Shown one piece after another: positions 281-49,400 of a stretch of DNA of 64,000 nt (within the stretch, counting starts at the first letter, position 1; the number at the start of each line of letters is the position of its first letter). The translations under genes were made by a program, and so were the position numbers. The notes under the pieces are model-generated. The model was given only the letters and a program-made list of their open reading frames with translations, did not search any database and had not been told where the DNA came from. The DNA comes from a virus (Duplodnaviria > Heunggongvirae > Uroviricota > Caudoviricetes), in IMG/VR virus record IMGVR_UViG_3300006204_000424, positions 22,382-86,381 of that record. The stretch is one strand, 5' to 3'.

Positions 281-824
281 ATAACCGATACCGATTGGCA
301 TGAGTCAATGAATGATAAAAGAGCAGTTACTTTCGTAGCCGCTCTTTTGTTATGATTATTTTGTATTATCGCATTATAAATATCAAGGCGTTAAACCTAA
401 AAATAACCTATAGTATCTTATAACTACCAAATCAGATGTAAAATTTATACCTTACATTTCAAACCTAATCAAATTTTACCAACTTATCATATTTTGCCGG
501 AAAACAGTATTATTTGATTTATCAATATTATTTTTATAAGGGTTTGCTGAGTTACAATTATCGAAAAGATAATTAATAGAAATTATTATGTTATTAGATT
601 ATTAGCATAAACATTTGTTCTAGTCGCTTATCTATTATTCCACATTTGTTATGTAAATGTGGGGAATAATTGAATGAATAAATTTTTAACAATTGACTTA
701 TGGGAACATATATGCTATTATTGTCAAACAAATATTTCTATATTTCAATCAATGGGACTATATGTTTCCATTGATGAATTTTGTCGTAAATGATAGAATT
801 AAGGAGGTTATGGAGGTTATGGGT

Positions 825-2339
825 ATGTTAAAATCAATTAGCTTGGAAAATTATAAGTGCTTTAAAGATAAAACAGATATTAACGTTGCTCCCCTCACAG
901 TCCTGTGTGGGGTTAATAGCAGTGGGAAAAGTTCTATTCTGAAGAGTTTATTGGTGCTCAAACAATCAGCAACAGGGAATAATAAAAACTTTTCAATCTC
1001 ATTATCTGGTGATTTGGTTGATAGCGGTAACTTTAATAATGTAATCTATGATGGAGAAGATAGCGCGAGTAAGACTTTCAAAATTATTAATGAATTTAAG
1101 ATAAGAAATCATAATCTTGCTTCAATTGGTAAATATATTAAGAAATCGGATGCTGAAGCATTTAATGAATTAAGACGAATTTATACTGCTGTCAGAGGCA
1201 CAATTAAAGAATTTATCCTTAGAGTTGAGATAACTATTGAACAAAATTCTATTAATCTGGATGAATTAACAAAATATATAAATGATAATAGAATATGTGA
1301 ATATGCTATATTTATTTCTGCCATTGATAGGGAGAATAAAATCATTGAAGAATGTGCAAGCCATATTATTATTCGCAACCACAATGACAATAAACATCAT
1401 TTCATTACATGGGAAAATATACCTGGATTTGTAACATCTAGGAATGAAAATAGTTTTAAAAATTATCAATGTGTTTGTTCATTTAATGGGCTAACTGTTT
1501 CAAATATTTTTGCATATAATATGCCTAATTGGGTAAAAGGTATTGTCCCCAATATTCTAGCTATTTCCAGAATTGTATCTAATCAATATACAAATCTGCT
1601 ATATATAGCTCCTTTGAGAAATACACCGGAAAGAACATATATTATGAACAAAGATGTTGACTCTGTTGGCATAGCAGGGCAAGATACTCCAATTTTACTT
1701 GCAAAGCTTAAAAACAAAAAAGTAGATACAGATATGTACTGCCCTTTTAACAATATACTTTATAAAGATCAATTTGATTATACATATGCAGAATATTTAA
1801 CAATTATCCAGCAATGGCTTGACTATTTTGAAATAGGGAAATTGGATATTTCTGGTGAAAATAGAGTGCTAAATTTAAGATTAGATAAACACAATATCGC
1901 AGATGTTGGTTTTGGTGTGAGTCAGTTGTTACCTATTATTTCTCAGGGCGTTTGTATGAACAAAGAGCAAACTTTGCTAATAGAACAGCCTGAAATCCAT
2001 TTGCATCCAAAAATGGAATTGCAAATGGCTGATTTTCTTATTCATATGGCAAAAACAGAAAGACAGGTGATAGTGGAAACTCATAGTGACCATATTATTA
2101 ACAGGATTATAAAAAGAGCAATGGAAAACCCTAGTTTAGTAGCAGATACAAACCCTTTAATTAAGATTATCTTTTTGGATAAAGAGAATATGACATCTAC
2201 TCAAAAAATAGATATTCATATTGATAAATATAGGGGAGTATTGAATGGTACTAAAAATTTCTTTACTCAGTTTGGATTTGAGCAGATGGAAATCGCAAAA
2301 CAAGGATATGAAAACCACAAGAGGGATCAACTAAAATGA
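825..2339 (+). CDS. AAA/ABC-type ATPase (AAA_15/AAA_21-like), candidate NTPase subunit of a two-gene defence-like system
   Basis: Walker A GVNSSGKSS near the N-terminus. C-terminal LLIEQPEIHLHP (Walker B/D-loop-like) followed by VETHSDH (H-loop). Start chosen at ATG 825 with GGAGG 7 nt upstream; the ORF-track start at 693 has no RBS. 4-bp ATGA overlap with the next gene. Confidence 0.7.
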   Translation: MLKSISLENYKCFKDKTDINVAPLTVLCGVNSSGKSSILKSLLVLKQSATGNNKNFSISLSGDLVDSGNFNNVIYDGEDSASKTFKIINEFKIRNHNLASIGKYIKKSDAEAFNELRRIYTAVRGTIKEFILRVEITIEQNSINLDELTKYINDNRICEYAIFISAIDRENKIIEECASHIIIRNHNDNKHHFITWENIPGFVTSRNENSFKNYQCVCSFNGLTVSNIFAYNMPNWVKGIVPNILAISRIVSNQYTNLLYIAPLRNTPERTYIMNKDVDSVGIAGQDTPILLAKLKNKKVDTDMYCPFNNILYKDQFDYTYAEYLTIIQQWLDYFEIGKLDISGENRVLNLRLDKHNIADVGFGVSQLLPIISQGVCMNKEQTLLIEQPEIHLHPKMELQMADFLIHMAKTERQVIVETHSDHIINRIIKRAMENPSLVADTNPLIKIIFLDKENMTSTQKIDIHIDKYRGVLNGTKNFFTQFGFEQMEIAKQGYENHKRDQLK

Positions 2340-3205
2340 GAGTAATATTTTCTCCAAGTTTATATTGTACAGATTGCGCTTTATATAATCTACATCTATT
2401 AGATGATACTTTGAATTTTATTGTGGAGTATCTTGATGCGCAGTTAGATATTTATGATGAGGCTTTTTATAGCGGAAACAATCTATTTCAACCACCAGTT
2501 ACATACTATAATGAATATGCACAATATTGCGGAATATTTACTAAATTATGTAAATTAATGCAGCAAGGCGATAATGTTGTATTAGAACATACTAATACAG
2601 CATTTACAATAGAAAATCGTAATTTTCAGATGATCAATAAATTTGAATTACAGAAAATTATAGATTATATACACTGGTTATTATCAAAAAATTTAATCAG
2701 CGAAGTTATAATGTTTTCAGATGTTATGCCAGAAGATTGCACTAACAATAGTATAGAAATTTCAGTCAACGGCAATCAGATATGTATTCCAATTGTTGCC
2801 GATCCCTGGCTTGATGAAACTGGAAATTTTGATAATTTCATAAAAGAAAATATTAAAGATTATAATAGTATTTTTCCATGTAATGAACTTTGTTGTAAAA
2901 TAGGTAACATAACAATGGAAATTGGCAACAAAGCACTTTACAATAAATATGCAACAATTGTTGCAAACAGGAATGGATATAACAAAATACCGTATTCGTC
3001 TCGCCAATATAAAAATGTACCATATTTTATGCGTAATGATGGAGAGTATATAATATGTGTTGATACATTGCACGGATTATTTGAGGTATTTCAAAAAACT
3101 GGTTCAACATATGAAAAATATTTAGGGGAGTATGATTTTTCATGCAAGAAAGTATCTGCTAAAACATCTTCTTCTGAAACACATAAATGTTATAATGATT
3201 ATTAA
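2336..3205 (+). CDS. Cys-rich partner protein translationally coupled to the ATPase, unknown function (candidate effector; RloB/DUF4276- or AriB/DUF4435-like is untested)
   Basis: 289-aa ORF overlapping the ATPase stop (ATGA). Contains CTDC and CNELCC motifs. No domain recognised by eye. Confidence 0.45.
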   Translation: MRVIFSPSLYCTDCALYNLHLLDDTLNFIVEYLDAQLDIYDEAFYSGNNLFQPPVTYYNEYAQYCGIFTKLCKLMQQGDNVVLEHTNTAFTIENRNFQMINKFELQKIIDYIHWLLSKNLISEVIMFSDVMPEDCTNNSIEISVNGNQICIPIVADPWLDETGNFDNFIKENIKDYNSIFPCNELCCKIGNITMEIGNKALYNKYATIVANRNGYNKIPYSSRQYKNVPYFMRNDGEYIICVDTLHGLFEVFQKTGSTYEKYLGEYDFSCKKVSAKTSSSETHKCYNDY

Positions 3206-3893: not shown

Positions 3894-6800
3894 ATGATAT
3901 TCAGAACGATAACAGACGATATAACAGGAGCAAATAAATCTGTCGGATTATTTGGAAAAACTCTAAATGACCTTAAAGGAATATTCAATTCTTTTAAGCA
4001 GAACGGAATTGTAAGCACATTACTCAACACGCCTCTAATCAATATTGATATGCGTGCCATAAATAGATATAATGACGCAATTAGAGCTGGTAAAAATTTT
4101 GAAGAAGGATTAGCTACAGCACGAAGAACTACTAATGCTGCTACGCTCGCGCTGATTGAATCCTCTCATGGAGCTGAAGTCCAAATTGAAAGAATAACTG
4201 CTGCACAAAGGGCTTCAACCATTGCCGCCAAGGCTCATTCAGCCGCCCTCAAAGCCCTCTCCATTGCAGGGAACATTGCAATGATGATAGCAATCAGCAA
4301 AGCAATCCAGCTTGCCATATCCGCATACGACAATTATGTCCATAGGCTTGATAATGCAAAAGAAGCATTAAATTCTTCTGCCGAATCCTATGAAAAGAAT
4401 AAAAAGGAAATTGAAGAATTACAGAAGCAAGTAGATGAATGTGCAAAGTCTATTGCTAACCTTGAAAAGCTGGAAAAAGATGGAAGTATCTCTATCATTC
4501 AGCAGGACGAATTGGACACACTGCGCCAGACAAATGAAGAACTTCAAAGAGAACTTCTCATTAAGCAGGAACTGGCAAAGGTAGATGCTCGTAAAACTGC
4601 TGACGATGCTACCAAACTATTTAATACTGCTGTTAAAAGTGAGTATGCTGGAAATATATATTATAAATCCAGAATTTTAGGAGATGTATCCCAACAGCAA
4701 GAACTTGAGTTTTCTATTGAAGAATACCAACGCCTTGCAGAACAGCAGAAGCGAAACGACATTGCATACGCCAACGGAGAAATTTCATTAAAGAAATACA
4801 CCAAAACAAACGATAAACTGATACAGGGAATGGCAGATGCCAGGAACAGGGCAACCGAAATGGCAGATGTTATCAATCAAACTGGCACCGCCTTGCAAAC
4901 ACTTGAATCATCTGGTGAAACTTTAACTTCTGACCAACAAACCCTGTTGTCACAGACAAATGCCCTAGGTGATGAGTATTCCAACTTCATCCACCAGATC
5001 GATGCAGCAACAAACGCTTTTGAGCAATTAGATGAGAAACAAAAGAGAGTCCGAGTGAAAACAAGGATTATAGAATCTGGTATCAGTGAAAGTGATGCGC
5101 AATCTATTGTTGACAGTTTTAAGGAGAAAGATCTGGATGTAGTTGGTTCTGTAAAGTTTGACTTTGAAGCACCTGAAAAGTCAGATTTTGATTCCGCAGA
5201 GGAATGGGGAAAGGCTTACGCAGAGAAATTCTTAGAAAGTGCTGTTGAGACTATCGAGAAAGATGAAAGCCTGCAAAATGCAATTGGGCAAACAGCAGAA
5301 AAAATGATTACTTCACTTGAATCGCTTTCCGATGGTTTTGATAAGATTTCTTCCATTTATGAGGATGTACAGAACAAAGCTGATTTCGATTATGGAAGTC
5401 TGATTGATGAAGATTTTGTCAATATTTTCAAAGCATACACAGCGGAATATGAGAATTTTGTTGATGTAATAAGTAACTCCCCTACTGACATTAAGGCTTG
5501 CCAATCCGCATTTGATGATTTGGTAACAGCATGGTTTAATGGGCAGGAACCTTTGAAAAACATCACCGAAGAAACATACGCACTTACTGTAAAATGGTTA
5601 GAGCAAAATGGTGTTGCAAACGCAAACGAAGTTGCAACCTATGCGCTTGCCAAGAGCAAGGTTGAGGCTTTCATTGCAGGACGTGACCTGTCACAAGTTA
5701 CTGACGAAGAAATTGCAAAATTCCTTGAAGAAAATGCCGCGCTTGGTGTAACGCAAGAGATGCTTTGGAAGTTACAGCTTGAAATGATTAACGCCAGCAA
5801 TACAAAACTGGATTTCAGCCAACAGCTTGAAGCATTAAATGAACTTGCTGAACGGGCTGGCGTTGCTGCTATCAGCCTGAGTAATATCGGCGGAGTACAG
5901 ACTGGAAACGCTATTGCAAATAACCTGATTAATTCTATTGCAAACCCTATGGGGACTCAATTTCAGAAAACCGCAATTGCCCATCAACAGAAAGCAATTC
6001 AGGATAAAATCAATAGCGGTACACCAAAAGTTTCCTACACACCCCGTTCTTCTGGTTCTTCTGGCAGTGGTTCATCTGCAAAAGAAAAATACGCTGCCGA
6101 AATTGACAAGTATAAAGACCTTTCTGAAGCCGTAGAGGACGTACAGACGAAGATTGAACATCTCAACGATGTTTACGACCACACAGACGATATTAACGAG
6201 CAGATTGCACTCAAGGACAAGCTGATTGGTCTGTATCAGGATGAGAAAAACGCCCTCTCCGCTTTGAACAATGCCAGAGATAAAGAAATCGCAGAGAATG
6301 TCCAAAAACTTCGTGATGCAAATTTCCAGGTTGATTACGACCCGAAAACTGACAGACTGAAAATCCATAATCTTGAGCATTTGAACGAGCTTTCTCAGGA
6401 TACTATCAAAGATTATGAAGATTTAATCAAGAAAACTGAGGAACTTAACGATGCCAATAAGGACAGCGCAGAGCAATGGACTGACCTTACTTATAAAATC
6501 GTTGAGGCTGGCGATGCAATCAGGGATTTGGAAACCAAAAAATACGAACAGTATATCAAGGATACGGAGCACCTGATTACACTGATGAGCAACCGCAAGG
6601 ATACGCTTGGCGGGGACATTCCTTTCTACACTAATATGATGAACGCCGCTGTTGAGCGGATGATGAAGCTTGCAAAAGAGGGCTACGAGAAAAACAAGGA
6701 CGAAATCCAAGACCTGCAGCGTGACTGGATGGATTACTACGACAAGCGTCTGGAACGAGAAAAGGAAATCCTTGAAATGCAGCTTGACAAAAAAGACGGC

Positions 6801-9215
6801 GCACTTGACGCTGTTATCAATCTGATTGACGAGCAAATCAAACAGCTTGACGATGAGCTTGATTCCATGAAAAAGCTGAACGAGGAGCGGAAAGAAGCAC
6901 TTGAACTGCAAAAAGCACAGGCTGCTTTGGACAAGGCAAAGGATCAGAAGGTCAGAAAAGTCCTGCGTGACGGGAAAGGCTATGTTTACGAAGCCGATGA
7001 AGATGCAGTCAAAGAAGCAGAAGAAAATCTTGCAGACCTGAAATATGAAAGCAAAGTTTCCTCTATTGAGAAGGAAAAGGAAAAATTAGAGGAATACAAA
7101 AACCTCTGGGCTGAAATCCCCAATCTGTTTGAGAAATACCAGAACGAACTTCTTGCAGAACAGATTCTTGGCGCAGGCTGGGAGCAGAAAATTCTTGACG
7201 GACGCTTAGATGTTTACAACGATTTCAAAGATTCCTACTTTGATTTGCAGCAGGATATTTTTGACAAGACCGAGGAACTAAACAACCACATGAATCAGGA
7301 ATACCTTGACATGATGGAAATGTTCCAGAAAATGACTGAGATGGCTGAAACACCTGCGGCTGAAGAAAAGAAACAGGGCAAGGTATGGTATGTCCAGAAA
7401 AACGGACAGGCACCCTCTCAGGCACAGGTTGGAGATAAGATTGTAACCAAAGGCGGCATATACGAAATCGCAGAACCTAATTCCGAAGGGGCGCACTACA
7501 ACGCTGAATCGGGTTTCTGGAACAGGAAACTCAGCGATTATCAGGCAAATGTCGTTGATGGTATGTGGGGAACGGAAGTCAAAAATGCAAATGCTGAACT
7601 CTCCAATATTCTTGGGCTGAATACCCTTTCTAACAAAGATATTGTTGATGCTGCGGAAAATCAGGTCGATGAAATTCGGAACAGTATCATCGCTTCTGGC
7701 GCACTTTCCAAATACACTTCTGAAAACAGCGAGATTACGCAAGACCAGATCCGCACTATGTTTGAAAACATGGATACTCTGGATGGGAACAGCGTCAGCG
7801 TTGAAGGAAATTCCGTCAGGATTGGTGACAATACCTATGCGCTTGAGGATTTGACAAATGCGCTGAATAATTTTGAAATCAATGTAGATATTCCACAGAT
7901 TGCTCCTGATACCAGCGAACCATTTGACGACAGCCAAATGTCCGATACAGACCAGACATATATTAAACAGCTCCAAACTGCATGGAATACTGCCAAAGCA
8001 AATGGCGATACTGAGATGATGAATAAGCTTCATGCAATGGCTGAGGCAAAGCGTGATGAATACAGGAGCGGCAAAACTCCAGAAGAAGCCAAGGTTTATG
8101 AAAAGTCGCAATATGAGTTAAAGAACACGTCTAAAACTGGCGGGGCTTCCCATGGCGGTGAGAAATCAGCACTTCAGCGTGAATATGAATGGCAGTTATC
8201 TAAAGCGAAGGAGTTTGGCGCAAGCAAGGAATATATCAGCAAACTGGAAAGTGCTATTGCGCGTGAGGAATACGGTTCAGGACATACGGTTGACACTTAT
8301 ACTGACCAATACGGGAAAACCAGCACGATTATCAATGCAACAGATAAGTCAGAAGCGAATATGTCCACTGATGAACTTCAGAAAAAGTATAACAGCAACC
8401 TGAACAAGAACAGCGGCAGTATGGATAAGCTTGGCAAAGACCTTGGAAAAACAAGTGATGCCCTTTCTGACACAAGCGATTCCATGTATGATGCAAGCGA
8501 CAATATTGGCACTTCTGCAAAAGATGTTGTAGATTCTAATACAGGGTTGAAGGAAAGCCTTGATGGAGTAAAAACGGCTGTCGAGGGTATGAATTTTGGC
8601 AGCGGGAATTATAGCTCAGAAAGCACATATATTGGCGGGACTCGATTCGTAACTGACAAAAGTTCTGGTAAATTAGTTGCCGCAGGTGATAAAGAGGTTG
8701 GTATTTCTTCCAATGACAAAGTTGTGGGTACAAAAACATGGTCATCTGGCGGTAAGACGTATCAAACTACATCTTATCAGAAACCTGGCGGCAAAGTGGT
8801 TACATCCACAAAAGTAACCAGCAGTAACAAGAAGAAAGCCAAAGGTGGTCTAAACCTTCCCCCCGATATTTATAATGTAGATGAATTGGGTAAGGAAATG
8901 ATCATTGAGCCTGTGCCCCAAGCCATTCAGGGCAGGTATCACGAAATGACATATGGCGGCAACGTAATCCCTGCCGAGGTGAGTGGAAAGCTCTGGGAAT
9001 TTGGTTTGAACCCTGCGGAGTTCATAGAAAAGAACCTGACGAAACTTGTCCAGCCTAATATTTACCCTACTGTTTCCCCCGCATCTTCAAACGTGGAAAA
9101 CCATTACCATGTTGAAAGCCTTGCCCTGCCTAATGTGCAGGATGTTCCTAGTTTCCTGAAAAACCTCTCTATGCTCCCTAATCTAGCCAGCCAGTATGCG
9201 GCAAGGAGGATTTGA
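3894..9215 (+). CDS. Phage tail tape measure protein
   Basis: 1773 aa, very long coiled-coil-rich protein. Ala-rich hydrophobic segment near the N-terminus. C-terminal Gly/Ser/Thr-rich region. Typical size and composition for a siphovirus tape measure. Confidence 0.85.
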   Translation: MIFRTITDDITGANKSVGLFGKTLNDLKGIFNSFKQNGIVSTLLNTPLINIDMRAINRYNDAIRAGKNFEEGLATARRTTNAATLALIESSHGAEVQIERITAAQRASTIAAKAHSAALKALSIAGNIAMMIAISKAIQLAISAYDNYVHRLDNAKEALNSSAESYEKNKKEIEELQKQVDECAKSIANLEKLEKDGSISIIQQDELDTLRQTNEELQRELLIKQELAKVDARKTADDATKLFNTAVKSEYAGNIYYKSRILGDVSQQQELEFSIEEYQRLAEQQKRNDIAYANGEISLKKYTKTNDKLIQGMADARNRATEMADVINQTGTALQTLESSGETLTSDQQTLLSQTNALGDEYSNFIHQIDAATNAFEQLDEKQKRVRVKTRIIESGISESDAQSIVDSFKEKDLDVVGSVKFDFEAPEKSDFDSAEEWGKAYAEKFLESAVETIEKDESLQNAIGQTAEKMITSLESLSDGFDKISSIYEDVQNKADFDYGSLIDEDFVNIFKAYTAEYENFVDVISNSPTDIKACQSAFDDLVTAWFNGQEPLKNITEETYALTVKWLEQNGVANANEVATYALAKSKVEAFIAGRDLSQVTDEEIAKFLEENAALGVTQEMLWKLQLEMINASNTKLDFSQQLEALNELAERAGVAAISLSNIGGVQTGNAIANNLINSIANPMGTQFQKTAIAHQQKAIQDKINSGTPKVSYTPRSSGSSGSGSSAKEKYAAEIDKYKDLSEAVEDVQTKIEHLNDVYDHTDDINEQIALKDKLIGLYQDEKNALSALNNARDKEIAENVQKLRDANFQVDYDPKTDRLKIHNLEHLNELSQDTIKDYEDLIKKTEELNDANKDSAEQWTDLTYKIVEAGDAIRDLETKKYEQYIKDTEHLITLMSNRKDTLGGDIPFYTNMMNAAVERMMKLAKEGYEKNKDEIQDLQRDWMDYYDKRLEREKEILEMQLDKKDGALDAVINLIDEQIKQLDDELDSMKKLNEERKEALELQKAQAALDKAKDQKVRKVLRDGKGYVYEADEDAVKEAEENLADLKYESKVSSIEKEKEKLEEYKNLWAEIPNLFEKYQNELLAEQILGAGWEQKILDGRLDVYNDFKDSYFDLQQDIFDKTEELNNHMNQEYLDMMEMFQKMTEMAETPAAEEKKQGKVWYVQKNGQAPSQAQVGDKIVTKGGIYEIAEPNSEGAHYNAESGFWNRKLSDYQANVVDGMWGTEVKNANAELSNILGLNTLSNKDIVDAAENQVDEIRNSIIASGALSKYTSENSEITQDQIRTMFENMDTLDGNSVSVEGNSVRIGDNTYALEDLTNALNNFEINVDIPQIAPDTSEPFDDSQMSDTDQTYIKQLQTAWNTAKANGDTEMMNKLHAMAEAKRDEYRSGKTPEEAKVYEKSQYELKNTSKTGGASHGGEKSALQREYEWQLSKAKEFGASKEYISKLESAIAREEYGSGHTVDTYTDQYGKTSTIINATDKSEANMSTDELQKKYNSNLNKNSGSMDKLGKDLGKTSDALSDTSDSMYDASDNIGTSAKDVVDSNTGLKESLDGVKTAVEGMNFGSGNYSSESTYIGGTRFVTDKSSGKLVAAGDKEVGISSNDKVVGTKTWSSGGKTYQTTSYQKPGGKVVTSTKVTSSNKKKAKGGLNLPPDIYNVDELGKEMIIEPVPQAIQGRYHEMTYGGNVIPAEVSGKLWEFGLNPAEFIEKNLTKLVQPNIYPTVSPASSNVENHYHVESLALPNVQDVPSFLKNLSMLPNLASQYAARRI

Positions 9216-22348: not shown

Positions 22349-22399
22349 ATGGAATATTTGTTAAATAAAACTACCCCCCCCCCCGAAAATTTGAACTAA
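22349..22399 (+). promoter_or_regulatory. Leader ORF B (MEYLLNKTTPPPENLN*) containing an 11-nt poly-C tract (22374-22384) upstream of fibre gene B
   Basis: AAAGGAG RBS plus ATG. Poly-C encodes PPP. Paralogous to leaders A and C. Confidence 0.5.
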
Positions 22400-27171: not shown

Positions 27172-28170
27172 TTACAAGAAATTAAAATAACTGCCAAGAC
27201 CCTTTTCAAGAGCTCTTTTATAAGCAACTCCAGCAACGGCGATATCCATAGCCCCTGTACCAATAGGAATACATATAATTCGTTCTTTGCTAACATTTTG
27301 TACAGATTTCTTGTTAGTTGCAATTTCACCTATTGTAGCATAGATATTTTCTTCATGAATTTTTTCATCTTCAACTACATCATGCAGGGCTCCACGATGT
27401 AGGCATTGACCAATATGATCAACAATAATTCTATCAGCATTTAGCAGTAAAGTATCTTCGCATTCCGTATAAGAACCCATAGGGAACACAATTTGTCCTG
27501 GCTTGATCCAATCGTCTTTTATGAATTTATCTTTGGATTGTGTGAAAGCAACAACAACATCGCCAACTGCCGCATCTTCCGGATTGTCGCAAATAATAAT
27601 TTCACCTTTTACAACGTTTTTCATATTTTCCTTAAATTTTGCAGCTGCCGCCGGAAGCATATCATAAACCCTCAATTCTTTGATATCAAATAACTCCGCA
27701 AATGCCAATGTCTGCATATGTCCTTGCATACCAGCTCCATATAAGCCAATTTTAATTTCTTTCCCGGTATACAAATATTTTGTCGCAACAGCAGCTTGCG
27801 CACCTGTGCGCAGATTTGTAATCAAAGCACCATCCATCATACATTTAAATTCGCCAATCGAAGGGTCAATCAGCATAATTGCAGCCGTGACATAAGGTAA
27901 TCCCATTTCACGACGTTTTCCAAGAAATCCTCCAGCCCATTTAATACCAGCAATATCCAGCCATCCGACATAAGCAGGCATAGCATTCATAAAACCTTCG
28001 TAAGCAGGATAAGATGCGGTTTCTCCCAAATCAAGATTAACTTTCGTAGGATTAATTGTCGTCCCTTCACCAAACCCGATGAACGTTTTGTCAACAATCT
28101 CAACGATATCTTTCATAGTGAGAAGATTATCAATATCAGATTGTTTCAGTAGCATAGTCTTATGTTCCAT
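27172..28170 (-). CDS. Ornithine cyclodeaminase / mu-crystallin family enzyme
   Basis: 332 aa. N-terminal LLKQSDIDNLLTMKDIVEIVDKTF. Rossmann motif IGLYGAGMQG. Confidence 0.65.
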   Translation of the reverse strand: MEHKTMLLKQSDIDNLLTMKDIVEIVDKTFIGFGEGTTINPTKVNLDLGETASYPAYEGFMNAMPAYVGWLDIAGIKWAGGFLGKRREMGLPYVTAAIMLIDPSIGEFKCMMDGALITNLRTGAQAAVATKYLYTGKEIKIGLYGAGMQGHMQTLAFAELFDIKELRVYDMLPAAAAKFKENMKNVVKGEIIICDNPEDAAVGDVVVAFTQSKDKFIKDDWIKPGQIVFPMGSYTECEDTLLLNADRIIVDHIGQCLHRGALHDVVEDEKIHEENIYATIGEIATNKKSVQNVSKERIICIPIGTGAMDIAVAGVAYKRALEKGLGSYFNFL

Positions 28171-28194
28171 GATTCATTTCCCCTTTCTTTTTAA

Positions 28195-29667
28195 TCAGTC
28201 ATTATTTTTGTTTATAGTAGAAACTGAACCTCTATTGCTCAGTTTGCTAACAAGAAGGAGTGCAACTACAGATGCTATAAGTCCCCAGATTACATAAGGC
28301 ACAGGAGATTTAAGCAAGGTAGCAATGATACAGCCCAAAATTCCGCATATCATACTTGCTCGTATACCCGCAGTAGTCACCATATTTCTTTTGCGAAGAA
28401 AGTATCCCAGATACATAGGCGCAGCCAAACCAGCAGCAGAATATGCGTAGGTTGTTACAATCGCATTCAATACGTTTGGATAAATGATAGAAAGCGTTGC
28501 CGCAAGGATTAACACAATAACCGAAAGAATCCTTGAAATCTTTAGCAATTTTTTGCTGTCAGTTTCCGGATGTGCCGACTGATAAATATCATGTGTCAGA
28601 TTTACCACAACAGACTGTGCTGCTGAACTTATGGTAGACATAATTGTTGCTACTATCAGACCAGCAAACAGTGCAACCAAAAATATTGGCATCTGCGTCA
28701 ATAGCCATCCAGTGGCATTTTCTCCTTCTATATTAGGGTTCATAGCATGTATTCCCAGACCTAATATACAAGACCAAGCTAATCCTATCAGGATAATTAT
28801 GGCGCTGATGATCAAACTTCTATTAACTTGTTTTTTGTTCTCAATTGCACAAATCCTCTGAAAATACATCTGGTTTGTCATGCCGCCAGGTAATGTAGAA
28901 AAGATCCATAAAAATACAGTGCCCCAACCAACACTAATAAAACCTCTTGGCATTTCAATGATTTCAGATGGGACTCTAACTTTGATATCTGCCACAGAGC
29001 CGCCATTCCGCATAACGAAAGCAAAAGTAACCAGCATGATTACAAGCATAAAACAGCCAAAGAAAAAGTCTGTCCATGCTACTGTTTTCATGCCAGAAGG
29101 CATGACAAAGAGAATGCTGCATATCGCCATTGCAATAATTAGAAATTCCAAAGGCAATCCAGTGATTTCCCGATAGATTTTTGCAAAAGCGGTCATCTGG
29201 GAAATAAGCCAGCCAAATGGCACCAATATAGTTAAGATAGATGCACATACTTTTACAAAACGGTCATTGTTACTAAAACTGCCTACCATATCAGGAATTG
29301 TTTCAAATTCATTTTCTCGTATCCAATTACCAATGAGCATATAAATCAAAAATGGCAAAACAGCAAAAACAGCATAGATTATCATGGCTAAACCATTGTT
29401 ATACGCATTGCCAACCTGCCCGACAAGCACGCCTCCGCCCATTGCACTGGCAAACTGAGTGCCTATTATCACATAAAGCGGCAGGCTTCGACCACCAATA
29501 TTCCAATCTTCTGTTGCATCAGCTTTCTTCTTATTTCGCTTATTGATCACAGTTGTGAGGAAAAAACTCAAAGCCAAAATTGTAATTGTTGCTATAACTG
29601 TAATAATCGCTTTTGTCGTCATTTTTTTCTCCTTTCTGTTGAAATAACAATTCTCAGGATTCATCAT
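28195..29667 (-). CDS. Sodium:solute symporter family transporter
   Basis: 490 aa, multi-pass membrane protein. GTQFASAMGGGVLVGQ region typical of the SSS family. Confidence 0.65.
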   Translation of the reverse strand: MMNPENCYFNRKEKKMTTKAIITVIATITILALSFFLTTVINKRNKKKADATEDWNIGGRSLPLYVIIGTQFASAMGGGVLVGQVGNAYNNGLAMIIYAVFAVLPFLIYMLIGNWIRENEFETIPDMVGSFSNNDRFVKVCASILTILVPFGWLISQMTAFAKIYREITGLPLEFLIIAMAICSILFVMPSGMKTVAWTDFFFGCFMLVIMLVTFAFVMRNGGSVADIKVRVPSEIIEMPRGFISVGWGTVFLWIFSTLPGGMTNQMYFQRICAIENKKQVNRSLIISAIIILIGLAWSCILGLGIHAMNPNIEGENATGWLLTQMPIFLVALFAGLIVATIMSTISSAAQSVVVNLTHDIYQSAHPETDSKKLLKISRILSVIVLILAATLSIIYPNVLNAIVTTYAYSAAGLAAPMYLGYFLRKRNMVTTAGIRASMICGILGCIIATLLKSPVPYVIWGLIASVVALLLVSKLSNRGSVSTINKNND

Positions 29668-29682
29668 ATATATGATGAATCC

Positions 29683-29712
29683 ATCATAATCGATTATCGA
29701 TTATTTGTCAAT
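29683..29712 (-). promoter_or_regulatory. Promoter of the transporter/OCD operon with embedded direct repeats
   Basis: On the minus strand: TTGACA - 17 nt (aataATCGATaATCGAT) - TATGAT. A 16-bp perfect palindrome CATCATATATATGATG spans the start codons at 29662-29677. Confidence 0.45.
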
Positions 29713-29746
29713 AGATTGATTTTCATACAACTCATATTTATCATTA

Positions 29747-29775
29747 TTGACAAATGTTCTCAAAAAATGTAAAAT
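29747..29775 (+). promoter_or_regulatory. Divergent plus-strand promoter, probably for gntR with a long leader
   Basis: TTGACA - 17 nt - TAAAAT. Confidence 0.4.
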
Positions 29776-30114
29776 ATTTTCGTCAATATATACCCAATGT
29801 AGATTAAATGAAAAAAATCAAAAGCGGAAAAATGGAAGAAATAGGAATATATGTATTATTTGTACTGACACTGACAAAAGAAACGAATAAGTGAAATGAC
29901 ATATGATTCATTAGTTAAATTTCTGGGTTTTTAAGAAATAAAAAATACTATCTATAATAAATAAAAATATTATGAAGTAAAACTTCATTTATGTGTCTAT
30001 ATGTCGAAATTACAATATATGATTTTTTCGTTGTAATTTAACGTCAATGTTTCGCTATTTGCTCCTGGCTTGTATACATAACTTCTGTTCAAAAAGGAGG
30101 ATACACAGTAGATT

Positions 30115-30762
30115 ATGAAAGCAATTACTTTAAAGCAACAAATTTACCAGATACTAAAAAAACGTATTTTAGAGGGAGAGTATGCTTTGGGCGGAAAACT
30201 AAATATTGATATAATCCGCAAAGAGTTCTCCGTCAGTCTTGCGCCAGTTCGCGAAGCCTTAACTCTTTTAGTTAAAGACAATCTGGTTGTAATGAATCCA
30301 AATACCGGTGTTCGGGTAATTGATTTTGATCCGAAAGCATATTATGAATTAACAGATGCAGTTAATGGATTATTGCTGGGTGCTTATGAAATCTGTTGTC
30401 GACGTAACAAAAAACAAATACTTCTGGAACATCTTTCACTACGACTTGAAAAGTTTTTAGAAAGTGTAGCTTCTGGCACCGACCGTGAAAAATTTTATGC
30501 CATTCTATTGTTTGATCGTTGCTTTGTTACTGCTACAGAAAATAATATGTATATTGACATTTTTGATAATAGGTTAGACTATTTATATCTGGCATATAGA
30601 TATAACCATCAAAATCGGTCTATTGACTGGGAGCAAGCAATTCGGCGCAATAAAATCTTGCTAGAAGCTGTTCAGGCCGATAAGATTGATATTGTAAGAG
30701 ACATTTTGTATGAAAGAATTAGTCCACATATTGCAGATGAGAAAAATGGACGGATTCCTTAA
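30115..30762 (+). CDS. GntR-family transcriptional regulator (FCD-type C-terminal domain)
   Basis: N-terminal winged HTH: IYQILKKRILEGEYALGGKLNIDIIRKEFSVSLAPVREALTLL. Confidence 0.7.
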   Translation: MKAITLKQQIYQILKKRILEGEYALGGKLNIDIIRKEFSVSLAPVREALTLLVKDNLVVMNPNTGVRVIDFDPKAYYELTDAVNGLLLGAYEICCRRNKKQILLEHLSLRLEKFLESVASGTDREKFYAILLFDRCFVTATENNMYIDIFDNRLDYLYLAYRYNHQNRSIDWEQAIRRNKILLEAVQADKIDIVRDILYERISPHIADEKNGRIP

Positions 30763-35476: not shown

Positions 35477-36664
35477 TTAATTTGTATATTCACAAGTATT
35501 CAGTAATACATCTCTCATTGATTTCATCGCAACATCGCTTGACATATGTGTATAAATATCCAATGTTGTTTTAACATTCTTGTGACCCATAATATACTGT
35601 AAAGATTTTATATCAATTCCACGTTCAATCATCCTTGTACAAAATGTGTGTCGCATAGAATGAGGCGTTATGGCAGGGATTTTATCGTGATGAAATTGGT
35701 TATACAAATTAACAGCATCTGATATACTTTTGTTAAGCATACAATAAGTTACAATTTTTGATTTTTTGTGTGATTTTAGAAGAAATTTTGAATAGCCATC
35801 TATAATAATTTCAATAGGTGTTTCCTCATCTCTCCTTTTTATCAAATTCAAAAATGAAACATATGCTTTATCAGAAATATATATCTCTCGCTTTCCTGCT
35901 TCTGTTTTTAGTGTATCGATTCTGAGTGGTGTGTTAGCGACATTATTGCGAGAACACAGCTGATGGTTTATGCTTAGTTCCCTATTCTTCAAATCAATAT
36001 CATCTAATGTAAGACCCAAAAGTTCTCCAACGCGAATACCTGTTTCTAACATTATGACAAATATGTCATAATACCACTGTATCTTCTTTGTATTCTTCAC
36101 AAATTCCAAAAATTCTGTTTCTTGATTTTGTGATAAAATAGCTTTTTCTTTGTAATTTGAAGGCAAAAAATCCAACTTAATATCGCATGGGTTTTTACGT
36201 ATCCAATCATCTTGTAAAGCAATATTAAAACAAAGTTTCAAAACACAATGATAAAATTGAATTCTTTCTTTGTGGATACCTGCGTTGTATAAACTTAAGT
36301 AAAATTCTTTGATATGAGAAGATTTCACTTTATTTATTTTCATTTTTGCAATTGGATACTTGCTGATGACGTTGATACCATATCGCATTTTTTGTGTAGT
36401 AGATTGCTTCCATTTTTTATTGCTTTCAAAATATATTTTTAGTAACTCTAAAACAAACATATTTCCATTATTAATAGATAACCCATCATCAATATCTTTT
36501 TGAAGTTGTTTTTCCTTTACACGCAATTCTTTTAATGTCGGCGCATATATGGTATGCCTTTTACCATAGCCATCACTACATCGATACATATAGTTACCAT
36601 CTTTACGCTGGCTTTCTCCAGTGAACAAATTCCTGCCCTTATTATCTTTTCTCTTTTCAGCCAT
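35477..36664 (-). CDS. int: Tyrosine recombinase / phage integrase
   Basis: C-terminal catalytic region HSMRHTFCTRMIERGIDIKSLQYIMGHKNVKTTLDIYTHM (R..H..Y). N-terminal arm-binding-like GRNLFTGESQRKDGNYMYR. Start set at MAEKRK (GGAGAGAGGAG RBS); the track ORF extends to 36715. Confidence 0.85.
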   Translation of the reverse strand: MAEKRKDNKGRNLFTGESQRKDGNYMYRCSDGYGKRHTIYAPTLKELRVKEKQLQKDIDDGLSINNGNMFVLELLKIYFESNKKWKQSTTQKMRYGINVISKYPIAKMKINKVKSSHIKEFYLSLYNAGIHKERIQFYHCVLKLCFNIALQDDWIRKNPCDIKLDFLPSNYKEKAILSQNQETEFLEFVKNTKKIQWYYDIFVIMLETGIRVGELLGLTLDDIDLKNRELSINHQLCSRNNVANTPLRIDTLKTEAGKREIYISDKAYVSFLNLIKRRDEETPIEIIIDGYSKFLLKSHKKSKIVTYCMLNKSISDAVNLYNQFHHDKIPAITPHSMRHTFCTRMIERGIDIKSLQYIMGHKNVKTTLDIYTHMSSDVAMKSMRDVLLNTCEYTN

Positions 36665-36752
36665 ACAAATTCGCTCCTCTCTCCTGCCGAAAAGAGCCTT
36701 AATGTGATAAAACATATTTTACCACATCAAGGCTGCAATTACAAATTCCTCG

Positions 36753-41572: not shown

Positions 41573-42676
41573 CGTTATACCCTCGGTTTCCCGATATTTA
41601 TTAGGGGACTAGACTATATTATGTTCTCTATAATAGAGAACCCTCATCTTTCGATTTAAACTGGACTTAATCGGAACATTGCCAGTACCTAACATCTAGG
41701 CTCTACTCTACTCGCTTCGTGTAAATTTCACCTTATTCTATTATTTTTATAATAGTGCTTTCGATAGTCGTTAGAAATCATTGACTGTTTGCTATTTTCA
41801 TTATTTATAGATTTATACAGAAAACTTCAAATTTTTTGTTCCTGTAAATTTCAAATATTCTTCTTTAGATATACTTTTAAAATAATAACCTTTTCTTCCT
41901 TTTGTGTTTTTGTCAATCATTTTTGCAATATTATTTTTACTATAACCTTCAATGCATCTTGCGGCTTGGCTAATAGAACCATACATTGAAACAAAATTAT
42001 CATTATTTTTATATACAGATACTGGTTTAGATTGACTATCAGATATACCTATATCATTCTTAGCCAATTGATCATCAAATGCCTTTTTGGTATTTTCGCT
42101 TGTATTAGTCCAATATAGATTGCTTAAATCAAAATTTGATTTATCATTATCTTTATGCCCAACTATGTCATACTCATTTGGTTTTGGATTACTAATAAAA
42201 GCTTGAGCTAAAAGTCTATGTAATCTTCTACTCCTATTTTTTCCATCCTTACATGTTATTCCAATATAAACATATCCGTTATGTTTATTTATATTGAATT
42301 TTTTAGGATAAAACCAGTCTTCACCATAATCTTTATATACTTTTCCTGAAGGGGTAATATAATCAGTATTACTTTCTTCAATCAAAATCATTTTTTCTTG
42401 TATATCTTCTTTTTTTATTAAGTTTTTTAATAGTTTTCTTCTTGCTATGCAACATCACCTTCCATTTTGATTTTGTTTATAGCAAACAGTCAACAACTTA
42501 CGGTATTATCTCTATCCTATAAGTTAATATAGGACTTTAGAATCTCTTACCAGCCTGCTTCGTCTTTTTTATATTGCTATCTGCATCTGCCTTGAGCAAT
42601 AGTCTTATTCTGGCTATGACCGTTTAATGAGGTGTTTTCGACTTAATATCACTATTAAGCTGCCCACTTATGTTTA
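41573..42676 (-). mobile_element. Group I intron (about 1.1 kb) interrupting nrdD and carrying an HNH homing endonuclease ORF
   Basis: The 5' exon ends in U (cct|). The intron ends in G (taacG|gca). Exon frames join to give ...IYGTP|AESLCG... Internal free-standing HNH ORF. Confidence 0.55.
41813..42391 (-). CDS. HNH-family homing endonuclease (intron-encoded)
   Basis: NRSRRLHRLLAQAFISNP and GHKDNDKSN segments typical of phage HNH_3 / AP2-type homing endonucleases. Confidence 0.65.
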   Translation of the reverse strand: MILIEESNTDYITPSGKVYKDYGEDWFYPKKFNINKHNGYVYIGITCKDGKNRSRRLHRLLAQAFISNPKPNEYDIVGHKDNDKSNFDLSNLYWTNTSENTKKAFDDQLAKNDIGISDSQSKPVSVYKNNDNFVSMYGSISQAARCIEGYSKNNIAKMIDKNTKGRKGYYFKSISKEEYLKFTGTKNLKFSV

Positions 42677-44810: not shown

Positions 44811-45325
44811 CTCATTTTGTAATAAATATGTGCTGCCATTTTAGCGACTGTATTACGTTCCATAACGAAAATATCGGGCTGCTTTTCGAAACCTGAAAAT
44901 TCTTTTCTGTCATAGAAAATACGCCTAAGCGAATCAATAAATCCATCGCCACGCTTTACCATTCGATATAATCTGACAATCCAATTCACTTTTAAATATA
45001 TTACTTTATATTGTTTTTCGCCATTGTAGTGATTTTGAAATGATTTTACTCCGCAGGGATCAATCACATAGACATCTGCTTCGTCACACTGCTCTTTTGT
45101 TGCACAATAATAATTGCCATGGTAATATGTTGTCGCAACCTTATTTTTCAGCATAACATAATCTTCATACGAAATAAAAACATGACCTTTTTCATTCTCT
45201 GTTCTTGGAGGACGTGTTGTGTAGCTTTCCAGCATCTTCATACCGTAATGTTTCTCAAGATACGTTGACAAATATGTCTTTCCCGATCCCGATTTACCTA
45301 CAAGCAAAATCAATGGTTTAGCCAT
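44801..45325 (-). CDS. Guanylate-kinase-like (d)NMP kinase
   Basis: P-loop GKSGSGKT and YTTRPPR motif. Confidence 0.65.
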   Translation of the reverse strand: MAKPLILLVGKSGSGKTYLSTYLEKHYGMKMLESYTTRPPRTENEKGHVFISYEDYVMLKNKVATTYYHGNYYCATKEQCDEADVYVIDPCGVKSFQNHYNGEKQYKVIYLKVNWIVRLYRMVKRGDGFIDSLRRIFYDRKEFSGFEKQPDIFVMERNTVAKMAAHIYYKMRWL

Positions 45326-45971
45326 ATATTGCCTTCATCCTTTCATAAAAATCCTCATTATATAGGGCATACCGTTCCTGAATATTTAAAAGATTCTCTT
45401 TCTGATATTTTTGTACAAATGCAGACCAAAAACCACATTCTTTAAATTCTGGACAACCACATCTATAAATACAATGCGGCACTAATACATCAGCCTCAAA
45501 CGGGTTTGTCTTATGTAATGTGTATTTGAAGTTCTCACCATACGATCTTGCTTCTGGTGTTGCTGCATTACACAACCTCTTACGCCATGCATCAATAAGA
45601 TTTTGCATATTGGCGTATCCATCAAAGGAAACAGGTGCCTCCTGTAGTTTTTCTCCTCTTGGAACAACATCTTTTAATCTGTCATTTCTTTGTGTGCTGA
45701 TAAATTTTTCAAACTTATGCCTCGACCACTCAGTAGAAACCCAATACGGTATAGACTTCCATGTCCAGTCAAACTCTATCAGACGGATTGGAGAATGTTC
45801 TGAAATCAATAGCTGCCATTTGAATGCATCCGTTGCATTATTTTCAGTAAAATCTTTATTATCCGTTGTCCTGCAATGGTTTTTTACCCTTTTCCAATCA
45901 TCTGCAATCCAGTTAAATACTGTTACAATATTTGTTTTCTGCATTTTAACCTCCTTTATCTTACTATCCAT
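45318..45971 (-). CDS. ThyX-like (flavin-dependent thymidylate synthase family) protein, divergent
   Basis: EHSPIRLIEFDWTW...STEWSRHKFEKFISTQRNDR aligns with the ThyX HGSPFEH..FTFEI...RHRxxSxxxxSQRY core. 217 aa. Confidence 0.45.
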   Translation of the reverse strand: MDSKIKEVKMQKTNIVTVFNWIADDWKRVKNHCRTTDNKDFTENNATDAFKWQLLISEHSPIRLIEFDWTWKSIPYWVSTEWSRHKFEKFISTQRNDRLKDVVPRGEKLQEAPVSFDGYANMQNLIDAWRKRLCNAATPEARSYGENFKYTLHKTNPFEADVLVPHCIYRCGCPEFKECGFWSAFVQKYQKENLLNIQERYALYNEDFYERMKAIYG

Positions 45972-47605: not shown

Positions 47606-49372
47606 TTAATTATAACTTGGTTCACTTTTGTCAAATCTTACAGTTTCAAACACTGGAAATTGGATTGATATACCTCCATCCTTATTCTTTGTTTCTTCTT
47701 TATACTTCACAGTAATGATTTTACCAATTACGCCTTCAGGATTTTGCCAAATTCGTTTTCTATCTTCATCAGAAAATCCACTCCCAACATTAACTTTATT
47801 CCCCTTATAGTCACACACCAACGCTCCCAATGTTCCTCTGTTGCGTCCTGAACCTCCTTCTATGCCAATACACTTAATATCGCAAGATAAAAACTTTTTA
47901 ACCTTTATCAAATTTTTAGTACGCTTGCATTCATAAGGTTCATCTAAATTGATAATAACGCCCTCCCAGTCATTTTCTTCAGCATAATCTAGCCACTTCC
48001 AGATTTCAGAATGATCTGTACCGGCATATAACTGATTTACAACCTCTATATTCTTACAGCAAACATCCTGCAATTGTAAATCAAATAGATTTAAGGCTTT
48101 TCTGCGATTTTTATACGTATTATGTGATTTGCCATTCCAAAATTCTTCTAGCGGAAACAAATCAAATACTACTAATTTTAAGTCCAGTTTATTTTCATCT
48201 TTACTCATCGCTATTCCAGTACCTTTTTGGAAAGATTCTGAGTCTGATAGCCCTTCGCTATTTTTATATAAAAGTTCACCATCAATGAAATAATTCTCAT
48301 ATCCCGTTTTCGTAATATCATTGATAATATGATCCAAGCCTATATATTCTTTTCCCTGTCTGGTCATACACTTATTGCCTACAAAAGCACATCTACAATT
48401 ATGAACCGCATATCCATTTGCGAAATAAGTATGATTATTCTCAACTTCTATGTCATAAGCTCTATTGGATTTTCTTTCACTTGAATGGTTAAATTTAAGT
48501 TCTTCACTTAAAATAATTTTTTCTATTTTTCTTTCAATTAATTTATATTCCCCATAACATTTCGTCCAATCATAATCCTTAATATAGATAGTATCTCCTT
48601 TATATAAGGTTCCCGCCTCTTTCCACCCATCAGGAGTGAATATTTTATGATTTTTTGTTACTTGAATAAAATCTCTAAGGTTCCCTCTTTCTACGGCAGT
48701 TTCTATTTGCATCCATTCTGACCTATCTTTTAGTCCGTTATCAAATACATTTATTACTTTTTGTTTTGATATTTTTTTGGTATTTTCATTAAATGATAAA
48801 ACTTCATCGCCTATAACTATATCTTTAATTTTCTTTTTTGTATTATCAGACATAGTAATATATGTATTTCCATCAAAACATCCGTTTAACTTTCTGGATA
48901 TAGAAATCCATTCATTGCCTTTTAGTTTCACTTTATCAATCGGAGTACCAAGCATAACATCAAAGGTCGGAATAAGTCCATGAATGCACTTGTTCACTAA
49001 TTTTGCATCAGCTCCAAGTTTTATACTTTTTGTGATCAATCCTCTAACAAAATCTTTTACTTCATTACTCATCATACAGCACCACGACTGTACATGTATT
49101 ACATCTTCTTCTCTTCCTGTGTTGTGTTGCTTAATATAATTCAACAATCCTAAAAATTCACTATCAATATCATTATGTACCCAATCTGATGTTTGAACTG
49201 TAATTGAATCAAATTTCTTTTCTGCAATTCCTGTTGTTACATTTCCATCTAACAGGAACTTCAAACATTCCTTAAATAACTCGTTATCTTTGTTATTTGT
49301 AATGATTTTCTTTTTGTCATTTAGGCTACTTGTTTTCTGAATTTGCTTAAATAATTTTATAACTTCTAACAA
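47606..49372 (-). CDS. ATP-dependent DNA ligase interrupted by a mini-intein
   Basis: After removing residues 165-325, motif I is KLNG|CR. Motif III LVVFDL, motif IV EGVIINL, motif V LIKVKK. C-terminal OB-like FPVFETVRFDKS. Confidence 0.65.
   Translation of the reverse strand: MLEVIKLFKQIQKTSSLNDKKKIITNNKDNELFKECLKFLLDGNVTTGIAEKKFDSITVQTSDWVHNDIDSEFLGLLNYIKQHNTGREEDVIHVQSWCCMMSNEVKDFVRGLITKSIKLGADAKLVNKCIHGLIPTFDVMLGTPIDKVKLKGNEWISISRKLNGCFDGNTYITMSDNTKKKIKDIVIGDEVLSFNENTKKISKQKVINVFDNGLKDRSEWMQIETAVERGNLRDFIQVTKNHKIFTPDGWKEAGTLYKGDTIYIKDYDWTKCYGEYKLIERKIEKIILSEELKFNHSSERKSNRAYDIEVENNHTYFANGYAVHNCRCAFVGNKCMTRQGKEYIGLDHIINDITKTGYENYFIDGELLYKNSEGLSDSESFQKGTGIAMSKDENKLDLKLVVFDLFPLEEFWNGKSHNTYKNRRKALNLFDLQLQDVCCKNIEVVNQLYAGTDHSEIWKWLDYAEENDWEGVIINLDEPYECKRTKNLIKVKKFLSCDIKCIGIEGGSGRNRGTLGALVCDYKGNKVNVGSGFSDEDRKRIWQNPEGVIGKIITVKYKEETKNKDGGISIQFPVFETVRFDKSEPSYN
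48398..48880 (-). mobile_element. 161-aa mini-intein (no endonuclease domain) inserted at ligase motif I
   Basis: Begins with Cys + block A (CFDGNTYITMSDNTKKKIKDIVIGDEVLS). Ends TYFANGYAVHN followed by the +1 Cys. Confidence 0.65.
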
Positions 49373-49400
49373 ACATACACTCCTTTCTTCAAAACAAACA

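Follow-up and report, generated by a model that had tools for sequence, protein, structure and literature searches.

Inteins are known to reside at conserved sites of enzymes of replication and repair, in replication enzymes at motifs for nucleotide binding and catalysis, and to decay by loss of their endonuclease. In DNA ligases, inteins have been described in one allele of the halobacterial ATP-dependent DNA ligase I (PMC4071816), in archaeal DNA ligases covered by a survey (PMC4760082) and, in the form of a split intein accompanied by a free-standing endonuclease, in the DNA ligase of Felix O1-like phages from ocean metagenomes (PMC2677866). Here we analyze a stretch of 64,000 nucleotides (nt) from the Caudoviricetes record IMGVR_UViG_3300006204_000424 (positions 22,382 to 86,381), referred to below as the window. 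It codes for a 67.6-kDa precursor of a phage ATP-dependent DNA ligase whose motif I is interrupted by a class-1 mini-intein, which would very probably be removed by protein splicing. The window shares with all three published cases the type of host protein, a DNA ligase, and with the Felix O1-like case also the phage origin. On the other hand, their inteins reside in other ligase families and organisms, a contrast that concerns the host and the organism and not the insertion points.

The natural and engineered class-1 mini-inteins Mtu RecA delta-I, Spl DnaX and Ssp DnaB, with lengths of 137-158 amino acids (aa) compared to 161 aa in the window, have the same Cys1, TxxH, Asp and His-Asn residues and lack the endonuclease at the same place. 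However, these three sit in other host proteins and at other sites and show low sequence identity to the window intein. Moreover, the mini state in the window is natural and of recent origin, with a full-length sibling of ~98% DNA identity still in circulation. Such full-length inteins at the ligase site, present in the protein clusters P0002, P0006, P0016 and P0119, have the same insertion point, a splicing domain 50-97% identical in amino acid sequence, and a place in the same phage module. They keep a LAGLIDADG_2 endonuclease of ~219 aa and are presumably still mobile, whereas the window copy has none.

For the exteins, the solved structures to compare with are Pmar-Lig (6rau, 6rar and 6ras) and T4 ligase (6dt1). 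Both have the same architecture, an N-terminal helical domain followed by the adenylation and OB domains, but carry no intein, and their sequence identity to the window protein in Foldseek alignments was only 16-20%. Motif I of Pmar-Lig has the canonical form KLDGVR, compared to KLNG-C-R in the window. The searchable literature, which is a limited sample, gave us no report of phage ATP-dependent ligases with a contiguous intein in motif I, or of this ligase family as an intein host; the motif I insertion site is apparently undescribed. The precursor gene and its parts are the following (window coordinates).

47606..49372, minus strand: precursor gene, 588-aa intein-containing ATP-dependent DNA ligase, 67.6 kDa, with the TTG start at 49372 and the stop codon at 47606-47608 (open reading frame (ORF) list; Pfam DNA_ligase_A_M, DNA_ligase_OB_2, Intein_splicing and Hint)
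49380..49386, minus strand: Shine-Dalgarno sequence AAAGGAG, 7 nt 5' of the TTG start (read from the sequence)
48881..49372, minus strand: N-extein, residues 1-164, ending in K161-L-N-G164 (alignments; aligned with Pmar-Lig from residue 11 of the latter)
48881..48892, minus strand: first half of motif I, K161-L-N-G164 (aligned with KLDG of KLDGVR in 6rau; K161, N163 and G164 invariant in 120 homologues)
48398..48880, minus strand: mini-intein, residues 165-325, 161 aa, 18.9 kDa (Pfam and NCBIfam models, mini-inteins in the PDB; missing from the 427-aa alleles)
48842..48880, minus strand: intein block A, CFDGNTYITMSDN, with the Cys1 nucleophile, Cys165 (sequence; TIGR01445)
48647..48658, minus strand: intein block B, T-K-N-H, intein residues 75-78 (aligned with TPDH of the Mtu RecA intein)
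48563..48580, minus strand: endonuclease-deletion scar KDY|DWT (DNA alignment with the full-intein locus L001, protein alignment, codon comparison)
48398..48460, minus strand: intein blocks F and G, AYDIEVENNHTYFANGYAVHN, with the block-F Asp, the penultimate His and the terminal Asn325 (TIGR01443; aligned with FDLEVEELHTLVAEGVVVHN of Mtu RecA)
47609..48397, minus strand: C-extein, residues 326-588, opening with Cys+1-Arg, the second half of motif I (PF01068, PF14743, alignment with 6rau)
48269..48289, minus strand: ligase motif III, FIDGELL, residues 362-368 (G365, E366 and L367 invariant in the 120 homologues)
47948..47965, minus strand: ligase motif IV, EGVIIN, residues 470-475 (E470 invariant and G471 nearly invariant in the 120 homologues)
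47894..47911, minus strand: ligase motif V, LIKVKK, residues 488-493 (L488, K490 and K492 invariant in the 120 homologues)

The preliminary description of this locus had proposed that residues 165-325 make an intein, bounded by Cys and block A on one side and by His-Asn followed by Cys on the other. The sequence bears out these boundaries: the segment starts with CFDGNTYITMSDNT...IGDEVLS, ends with ...YFANGYAVHN and is followed by Cys326. All four intein blocks (A, B, F and G) are preserved. The search with hidden Markov models of the intein blocks, suggested there as a check, gave scores above the cut-offs for Intein_splicing, Hint, PT-HINT and TIGR01443. Pfam Intein_splicing (PF14890) matched residues 172-325 with 39.7 bits in the precursor (cut-off 35.8) and with 43.1 bits (E = 4.8e-11) in the excised intein. 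The absence of a Hint-domain hit, named in the same description as an outcome that would speak against an intein, was not what we observed, since Pfam Hint (PF01079) scored 42.8 bits compared to the cut-off of 29.7. The PT-HINT score was 30.6 bits (cut-off 27.7), and the NCBIfam model of the intein C-terminal region, TIGR01443, scored 30.5 bits (cut-off 15.6). The model of the N-terminal region, TIGR01445, with a cut-off of 24.5 bits, matched residues 165-246 with 26.7 bits on the intein alone and fell just under the cut-off, at 23.5 bits, in the precursor.

We also observed that the intein aligned end to end with the solved mini-inteins Mtu RecA, Spl DnaX and Ssp DnaB (E ~1e-8). The canonical class-1 splicing residues are all present: Cys1, TKNH, the block-F Asp, His-Asn and Cys+1. 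Cys1 is kept in all five intein-bearing alleles, and in all of them the first residue of the C-extein (Cys326 in the window) is the Cys+1 nucleophile. Judged by these sequence features, the insert is a class-1 intein, with a signal far beyond chance.

A Pfam profile search of the window protein gave no match to LAGLIDADG, HNH, GIY-YIG or any other endonuclease domain. The 161 residues, within the size range of about 130-200 aa for mini-inteins, comprise the splicing lobes with no endonuclease between them, so the term mini-intein, used from the start for this insert, is appropriate; the siblings hold LAGLIDADG_2 exactly at the 219-codon gap of the window copy. While the mobile form of the intein is recognized by PF03161 (LAGLIDADG_2), the window copy shows no such match; it descends from the LAGLIDADG form and is not itself a member of that form.

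The exteins belong to an ATP-dependent DNA ligase, as had been proposed. The N-extein consists of a helical N-terminal domain of the DNA-binding type and the beginning of the nucleotidyltransferase domain; the C-extein holds the remainder of the adenylation domain and then the OB domain. DNA_ligase_A_M (PF01068) matched residues 335-492 with 32.3 bits in the precursor and 36.1 bits in the spliced protein (cut-off 26.2), and DNA_ligase_OB_2 (PF14743) matched residues 507-579 with 60.3 bits (cut-off 28). With the exteins as a query, phmmer found Pmar-Lig (6rau, E = 3e-30) and T4 ligase (6dt1, E = 2e-15). An AlphaFold2 (AF2) model of the precursor had a mean predicted local distance difference test (pLDDT) value of 74.9, with ~90 over residues 1-130 and high values in the ligase domains. 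In a Foldseek search with this model the same ligases ranked first (6ras, E = 3e-22; 6dt1, E = 3e-21), confirming the ligase fold. In line with the earlier assignment, motifs III, IV and V (FIDGELL, EGVIIN and LIKVKK) were located downstream of the insert, in the C-extein; the OB domain lies there as well. The start position of the precursor coincides with that of its homologues in the alignment.

The intein is inserted between Gly164 and residue 326, three residues past K161, the predicted AMP-accepting lysine, and thereby parts the fourth position of motif I from the fifth. Removal of residues 165-325 in silico produced ...SRKLNG|CRCAF and extended the PF01068 match to profile positions 20-204 compared to 44-204 before the removal. 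The spliced sequence ...SRKLNGCRCAF... aligned over ...KLDGVRVL... of Pmar-Lig, the best solved relative, and the motif is uninterrupted, as KLNG(T/C)R, in 115 intein-less homologues. The proposal that removal of the insert restores motif I as KLNG|CR is thus upheld.

The ligase family was found in three states: empty, with a full-length intein and with the mini-intein. The exact 588-aa protein (P0001) recurs in many sequencing runs, on 24 or more public contigs of up to 219,895 bp, and a second 588-aa member of the P0001 cluster came from data of the Joint Genome Institute (JGI). The window gene is therefore an allele in stable circulation, not a product of faulty assembly. Intein-less alleles are many; they are exactly 427 aa long (588 minus 161), 85-88% identical, and colinear across the junction. 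The full-length alleles make the four 90%-identity clusters mentioned above, with proteins of 804-815 aa whose inteins of 379-380 aa, with LAGLIDADG_2 (PF03161), occupy the same site as the mini-intein. One of them, P0119, has 123 members, including WP_313721013.1 of Blautia faecis, which is annotated only as 'hypothetical protein'. The junction KLNG|C...HN|CR is common to all intein-bearing proteins. Only five of the 120 closest ligase clusters, and one of 24 ligase loci in IMG/VR, carry an intein.

Among 50,697 phage records, megablast with 10 kb around the gene found no match. In tblastn, 1,614 phage records matched the query, none of them covering 80% of it or more; the 40 matches listed were all in two pieces with 65-75% coverage, as expected of intein-less ligases. 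In these comparisons, deposited phage genomes yielded no annotated precedent.

At the DNA level, we compared the window gene by alignment to two others, the gene of P0002 (locus L001, full intein) and an empty allele (locus L004). The window intein is the 380-aa intein of P0002 minus 219 residues, cut between ...IYI(K/R)DY and DWTKCY.... The deletion relative to L001 spans 657 nt, or 219 codons, is in frame, and removes the LAGLIDADG_2 domain. Its junction lies between bases 48572 and 48571 on the minus strand (intein residues 103|104), with a microhomology of 2 nt (GA), at the place where endonuclease domains separate one splicing lobe from the other. In the part of the intein that was kept, the DNA of the mini-intein and that of L001 are 95-99% (about 98%) identical, compared to mostly ~80-88% identity in the exteins of the same two genes, with lower values in parts of the C-extein. 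The N-extein of L001, in turn, is 97-99% identical over ~270 nt to that of the empty L004. Between the mini and the full intein, 10 of 161 codons differ, six of them synonymously.

In a neighbor-joining tree of the exteins the intein-bearing alleles are scattered (polyphyletic) and nested among empty ones. P0016 and P0119 form one group, P0006 stands alone, P0002 falls amid empty alleles, and the window falls amid the empty alleles P0003, P0004, P0005 and P0007. An intein far more similar than its host genes, together with polyphyly, is a classical signature of recent spread by homing. As the intein identity is far above the extein identity and the carriers are polyphyletic, the comparison points to a parent intein that spread horizontally in recent times and to a later loss of the nuclease. 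The ~2% by which the two intein copies differ sets an upper limit on the age of this deletion. Long co-conversion tracts were not found around the intein in the comparison of the mini and full alleles: the flanks beyond ~9 nt diverge like other extein sequence.

Across twelve empty and occupied alleles the target site reads, in protein sequence, SRKLNG|(T/C)R(C/A/M)(A/G)F. The +1 codon is ACN (Thr) in empty alleles compared to TGY (Cys) in occupied ones, a change of at least two bases. The residue itself is Thr in 104 of the 115 empty alleles and Cys in the other 11, which are dispersed over the extein tree. All three sampled empty alleles with Cys+1, L025 (P0043), L026 (P0031) and L027 (P0104), have the codon TGY. 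The 3' flank of L027 is identical over 30 nt to that of the full-intein L001, yet L027 belongs to a different extein clade. Such empty Cys+1 alleles may be footprints of precise intein loss.

Related inteins at the same motif were also found beyond this ligase family in metagenomes. A search with the intein alone in 1.84 billion cluster representatives gave 2,578 relatives at E <= 1e-3; junctions were parsed in the best 150, and 20 were scanned with Pfam. Related LAGLIDADG inteins are located at K-x-(D/N/H)-G|C in other families of ATP-dependent DNA ligases (P0138, P0142, P0181, P0192, P0257, P0284 and P0162), and one occupies the KxDG|C position of an NAD-dependent LigA (P0144). Others reside in RNA ligases matching PF09414 (P0158 and P0259); P0168, grouped with these, has the KxDG|C junction and a PHA02142 OB-fold domain with no match to PF09414. 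A second ligase site, directly past motif IV (EG|C), is occupied in P0196 and P0165, and P0162 has inteins at both the motif I and the motif IV sites. This pattern suggests that motifs I and IV are intein hotspots across the ligase superfamily. Motif I (KxDG|x) is an under-recorded intein site, its public records being unnamed or labeled 'hypothetical protein'.

Splicing of the precursor is expected to follow four steps, all of which are established class-1 intein chemistry. An N-S acyl shift would occur at Gly164-Cys165; the N-extein would then be moved onto Cys326 (+1) by trans-thioesterification; cyclization of Asn325, aided by the penultimate His, would free the 18.9-kDa intein; and an S-N shift would give the 48.7-kDa ligase of 427 aa with the motif K-L-N-G-C-R restored. 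Prior to splicing the precursor would be inactive, because the AMP-accepting K161 and the Arg of motif I lie 161 residues apart. As to the history, the ancestral lineage would be that of LAGLIDADG inteins homing into the SRKLNG|TR-encoding sequence of large temperate phages or prophages whose hosts are gut Clostridia of the Lachnospiraceae type. The window copy would have lost its endonuclease by the 657-bp in-frame deletion shortly before or after it reached this ligase lineage, and we infer that it is now an immobile but splicing-competent passenger. It would persist because imprecise loss would destroy the ligase and only precise removal preserves it.

Some observations weigh against the picture of a splicing mini-intein in a working ligase of a gut phage. 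The AF2 confidence in the intein is moderate, with pLDDT means of ~39-85 in blocks of 10 residues, because only five of the 120 aligned rows contain the intein; for this matter, the case for the Hint fold was built on sequence alignments with solved inteins and made no use of the AF2 model. Position 3 of motif I is Asn and not the canonical Asp of the KxDG form typical for ATP-dependent ligases. All 120 homologues share this Asn without exception, so that it characterizes the family and does not reflect damage; by this alignment K-L-N-G is a family-wide variant of the KxDG catalytic motif. All four amino acid replacements between the mini and the full intein (Y/H93, K/E94, T/I97 and K/R101) fall in intein residues 93-101, adjoining the deletion junction; the region of this cluster is 48572-48604 on the minus strand (intein residues 93-103). 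The cluster could reflect compensation, decay, relaxed constraint or a recombination patch, and the direction of the replacements is ambiguous, Thr97 being common to P0006 and the window. Engineered deletions of the endonuclease sometimes impair splicing. Finally, the assignment of the host comes only from intein-less relatives in Lachnospiraceae, Lacrimispora and Clostridiaceae and from one Blautia record.

One could go further and assume that the nuclease-less intein is kept for a function, be it protection of the occupied KLNG|CR site from the LAGLIDADG endonucleases of near-identical inteins in co-infecting relatives, or a splicing (and hence ligase activity) that depends, through Cys1, Cys+1 and Cys+3, on the redox state of an anaerobic host, and that KxDG| is a hotspot throughout the superfamily, in ATP- and NAD-dependent DNA ligases and in RNA ligases; we consider this joint claim unlikely. 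A related explanation is that the mini-intein does splice and benefits the phage, either by immunity to the LAGLIDADG endonuclease of rival phages or by conditional splicing, e.g. redox-dependent, that gates the ligase. Both conditional splicing and competition between phages by intron and intein endonucleases have been described in other systems. The endonuclease-bearing siblings, ~98% identical in DNA, do circulate in the same kind of samples, the C-extein opens with C-R-C compared to T-R-C in most empty alleles, and the phage codes for an anaerobic ribonucleotide reductase, suggesting an anaerobic host. Still, neutral persistence fits the data equally well, precise deletion being rare and imprecise deletion inactivating the ligase, and a strong benefit is at odds with the low share, only ~4%, of related ligase alleles that carry any intein, so that we see this explanation as improbable.

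Should the insert be a decayed Hint remnant that no longer splices, the ligase gene would be a pseudogene, replaced in function by the host ligase, and the loss of the endonuclease would be the first step of decay. The missing endonuclease, the four non-synonymous changes clustered beside the deletion junction and the variation of accessory genes around the ligase among many related phages are what such a remnant would show. However, the catalytic residues Cys1, TKNH, the block-F Asp, His-Asn and Cys+1 are intact, the reading frame of 588 codons is open, and the exteins hold all the ligase residues that are invariant in the 120 homologues. The protein is also unchanged on its 24 or more contigs, and synonymous changes make up six of the ten codon differences from the full-length copy. 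Given this, decay to a non-splicing remnant appears very unlikely, and a splicing mini-intein is preferred.

Another kind of Hint module, bacterial intein-like (BIL) or pretoxin Hint, might be thought of, as the PT-HINT and Hedgehog-type Hint models match too and many distant intein relatives are tandem Hint repeats in very large proteins. BIL and pretoxin Hint domains are found in variable regions of non-conserved or secreted proteins, with no strict His-Asn and +1 nucleophile and no colinear empty alleles. The window has, to the contrary, a single in-frame insert in an invariant catalytic motif with colinear empty alleles, a C-terminal His-Asn and Cys+1, a TIGR01443 score above the cut-off and a PT-HINT match weaker than the intein match, while the nearest relatives, which occupy the same site in ligases, are inteins of the LAGLIDADG form; this identity is contradicted, with a negligible chance of being right. 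An assembly chimera joining an intein fragment to a ligase gene, a general possibility in metagenome-derived sequence with nothing further in its favor, is likewise contradicted and has next to no probability, given the identical product on contigs assembled independently from different runs with the same neighbor genes, and the second cluster member from JGI.

The case of the proposed splicing mini-intein fits the known rule on where inteins reside and how they decay, and it is an ordinary kind of selfish element. The understanding of inteins and ligases is unchanged by the find; its value is chiefly in the cross-class hotspot at motif I and in the snapshot of the intein life cycle that one phage ligase family gives, with empty, endonuclease-bearing and freshly deleted mini states as well as possible scars of precise loss, while the DNA identities date the events as recent. 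Besides, screens in protein or genome engineering could make use of this mini-intein, which is compact, of natural origin and has a Gly(-1)/Cys(+1) junction, and of the matched LAGLIDADG enzyme with its defined target.

The neighborhood of the ligase gene is a phage module of replication and nucleotide metabolism. It contains genes of a DnaB-like helicase, a PD-(D/E)XK nuclease, the alpha subunit of DNA polymerase III, a RecD2-type helicase, two DNA methylases, an exonuclease, NrdD and NrdG, a dUTPase, a FolD-like enzyme and a tyrosine integrase. The synteny of the module is kept with the loci of empty and full-intein alleles. Relatives occur in viral contigs of up to ~157 kb and in genomes of Lachnospiraceae, Lacrimispora, Clostridiaceae and Blautia. 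As we infer from these relatives, the gene most likely resides in a large temperate phage or prophage with gut Clostridia as hosts. Neither a group I intron nor any other RNA element turned up near the gene in scans of the window with Rfam and for tRNAs. The 535-kb contig of P0006 was considered as a megaphage and rejected: IMG/VR delimits in it a viral region of 127.5 kb, which makes a prophage within a bacterial contig the likelier reading.

Other homing elements were seen in the same module. A free-standing HNH_3 endonuclease ORF is located between NrdD and NrdG (window 41813-42391, minus strand). In the empty-ligase relatives an HNH_3 ORF (L003 3269-3808 and L004 3260-3799) and an 81-aa ORF lie just downstream of the ligase, and both are missing in the window. 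The replication module seems to be a hotspot for various homing elements. Directly upstream of the empty ligase of L003, an IS605 OrfB/TnpB (Cas12f-like) gene (503-1477) stands in place of the MazG-like gene of L004 and L005.

Farther from the ligase, genes of the ornithine cyclodeaminase family, of a sodium:solute symporter and of a GntR regulator adjoin a Tn916-type tyrosine integrase (window 27172-30762 and 35477-36715). Over the first 30 kb of the window the G+C content also changes, and the region represents a junction of prophage and host or else metabolic cargo. A 1,773-aa ORF with no Pfam match, at 3894-9215 on the plus strand, lies in the most G+C-rich stretch of the window (0.40-0.43 compared to ~0.30 around the ligase). 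At 693-3205, also on the plus strand, a 548-aa ATPase of the AAA_15/AAA_21 type (AbiEii- or OLD-like) overlaps by 4 nt a 289-aa ORF without a Pfam match; the two could make an anti-phage defense or exclusion pair. A 217-aa ORF at 45318-45971 on the minus strand, in the nucleotide-metabolism block near the ligase, has a sub-threshold match to ThyX (PF02511, 20.7 bits compared to 24.8) over its C-terminal 38 residues and may code for a divergent thymidylate-synthase-like protein.

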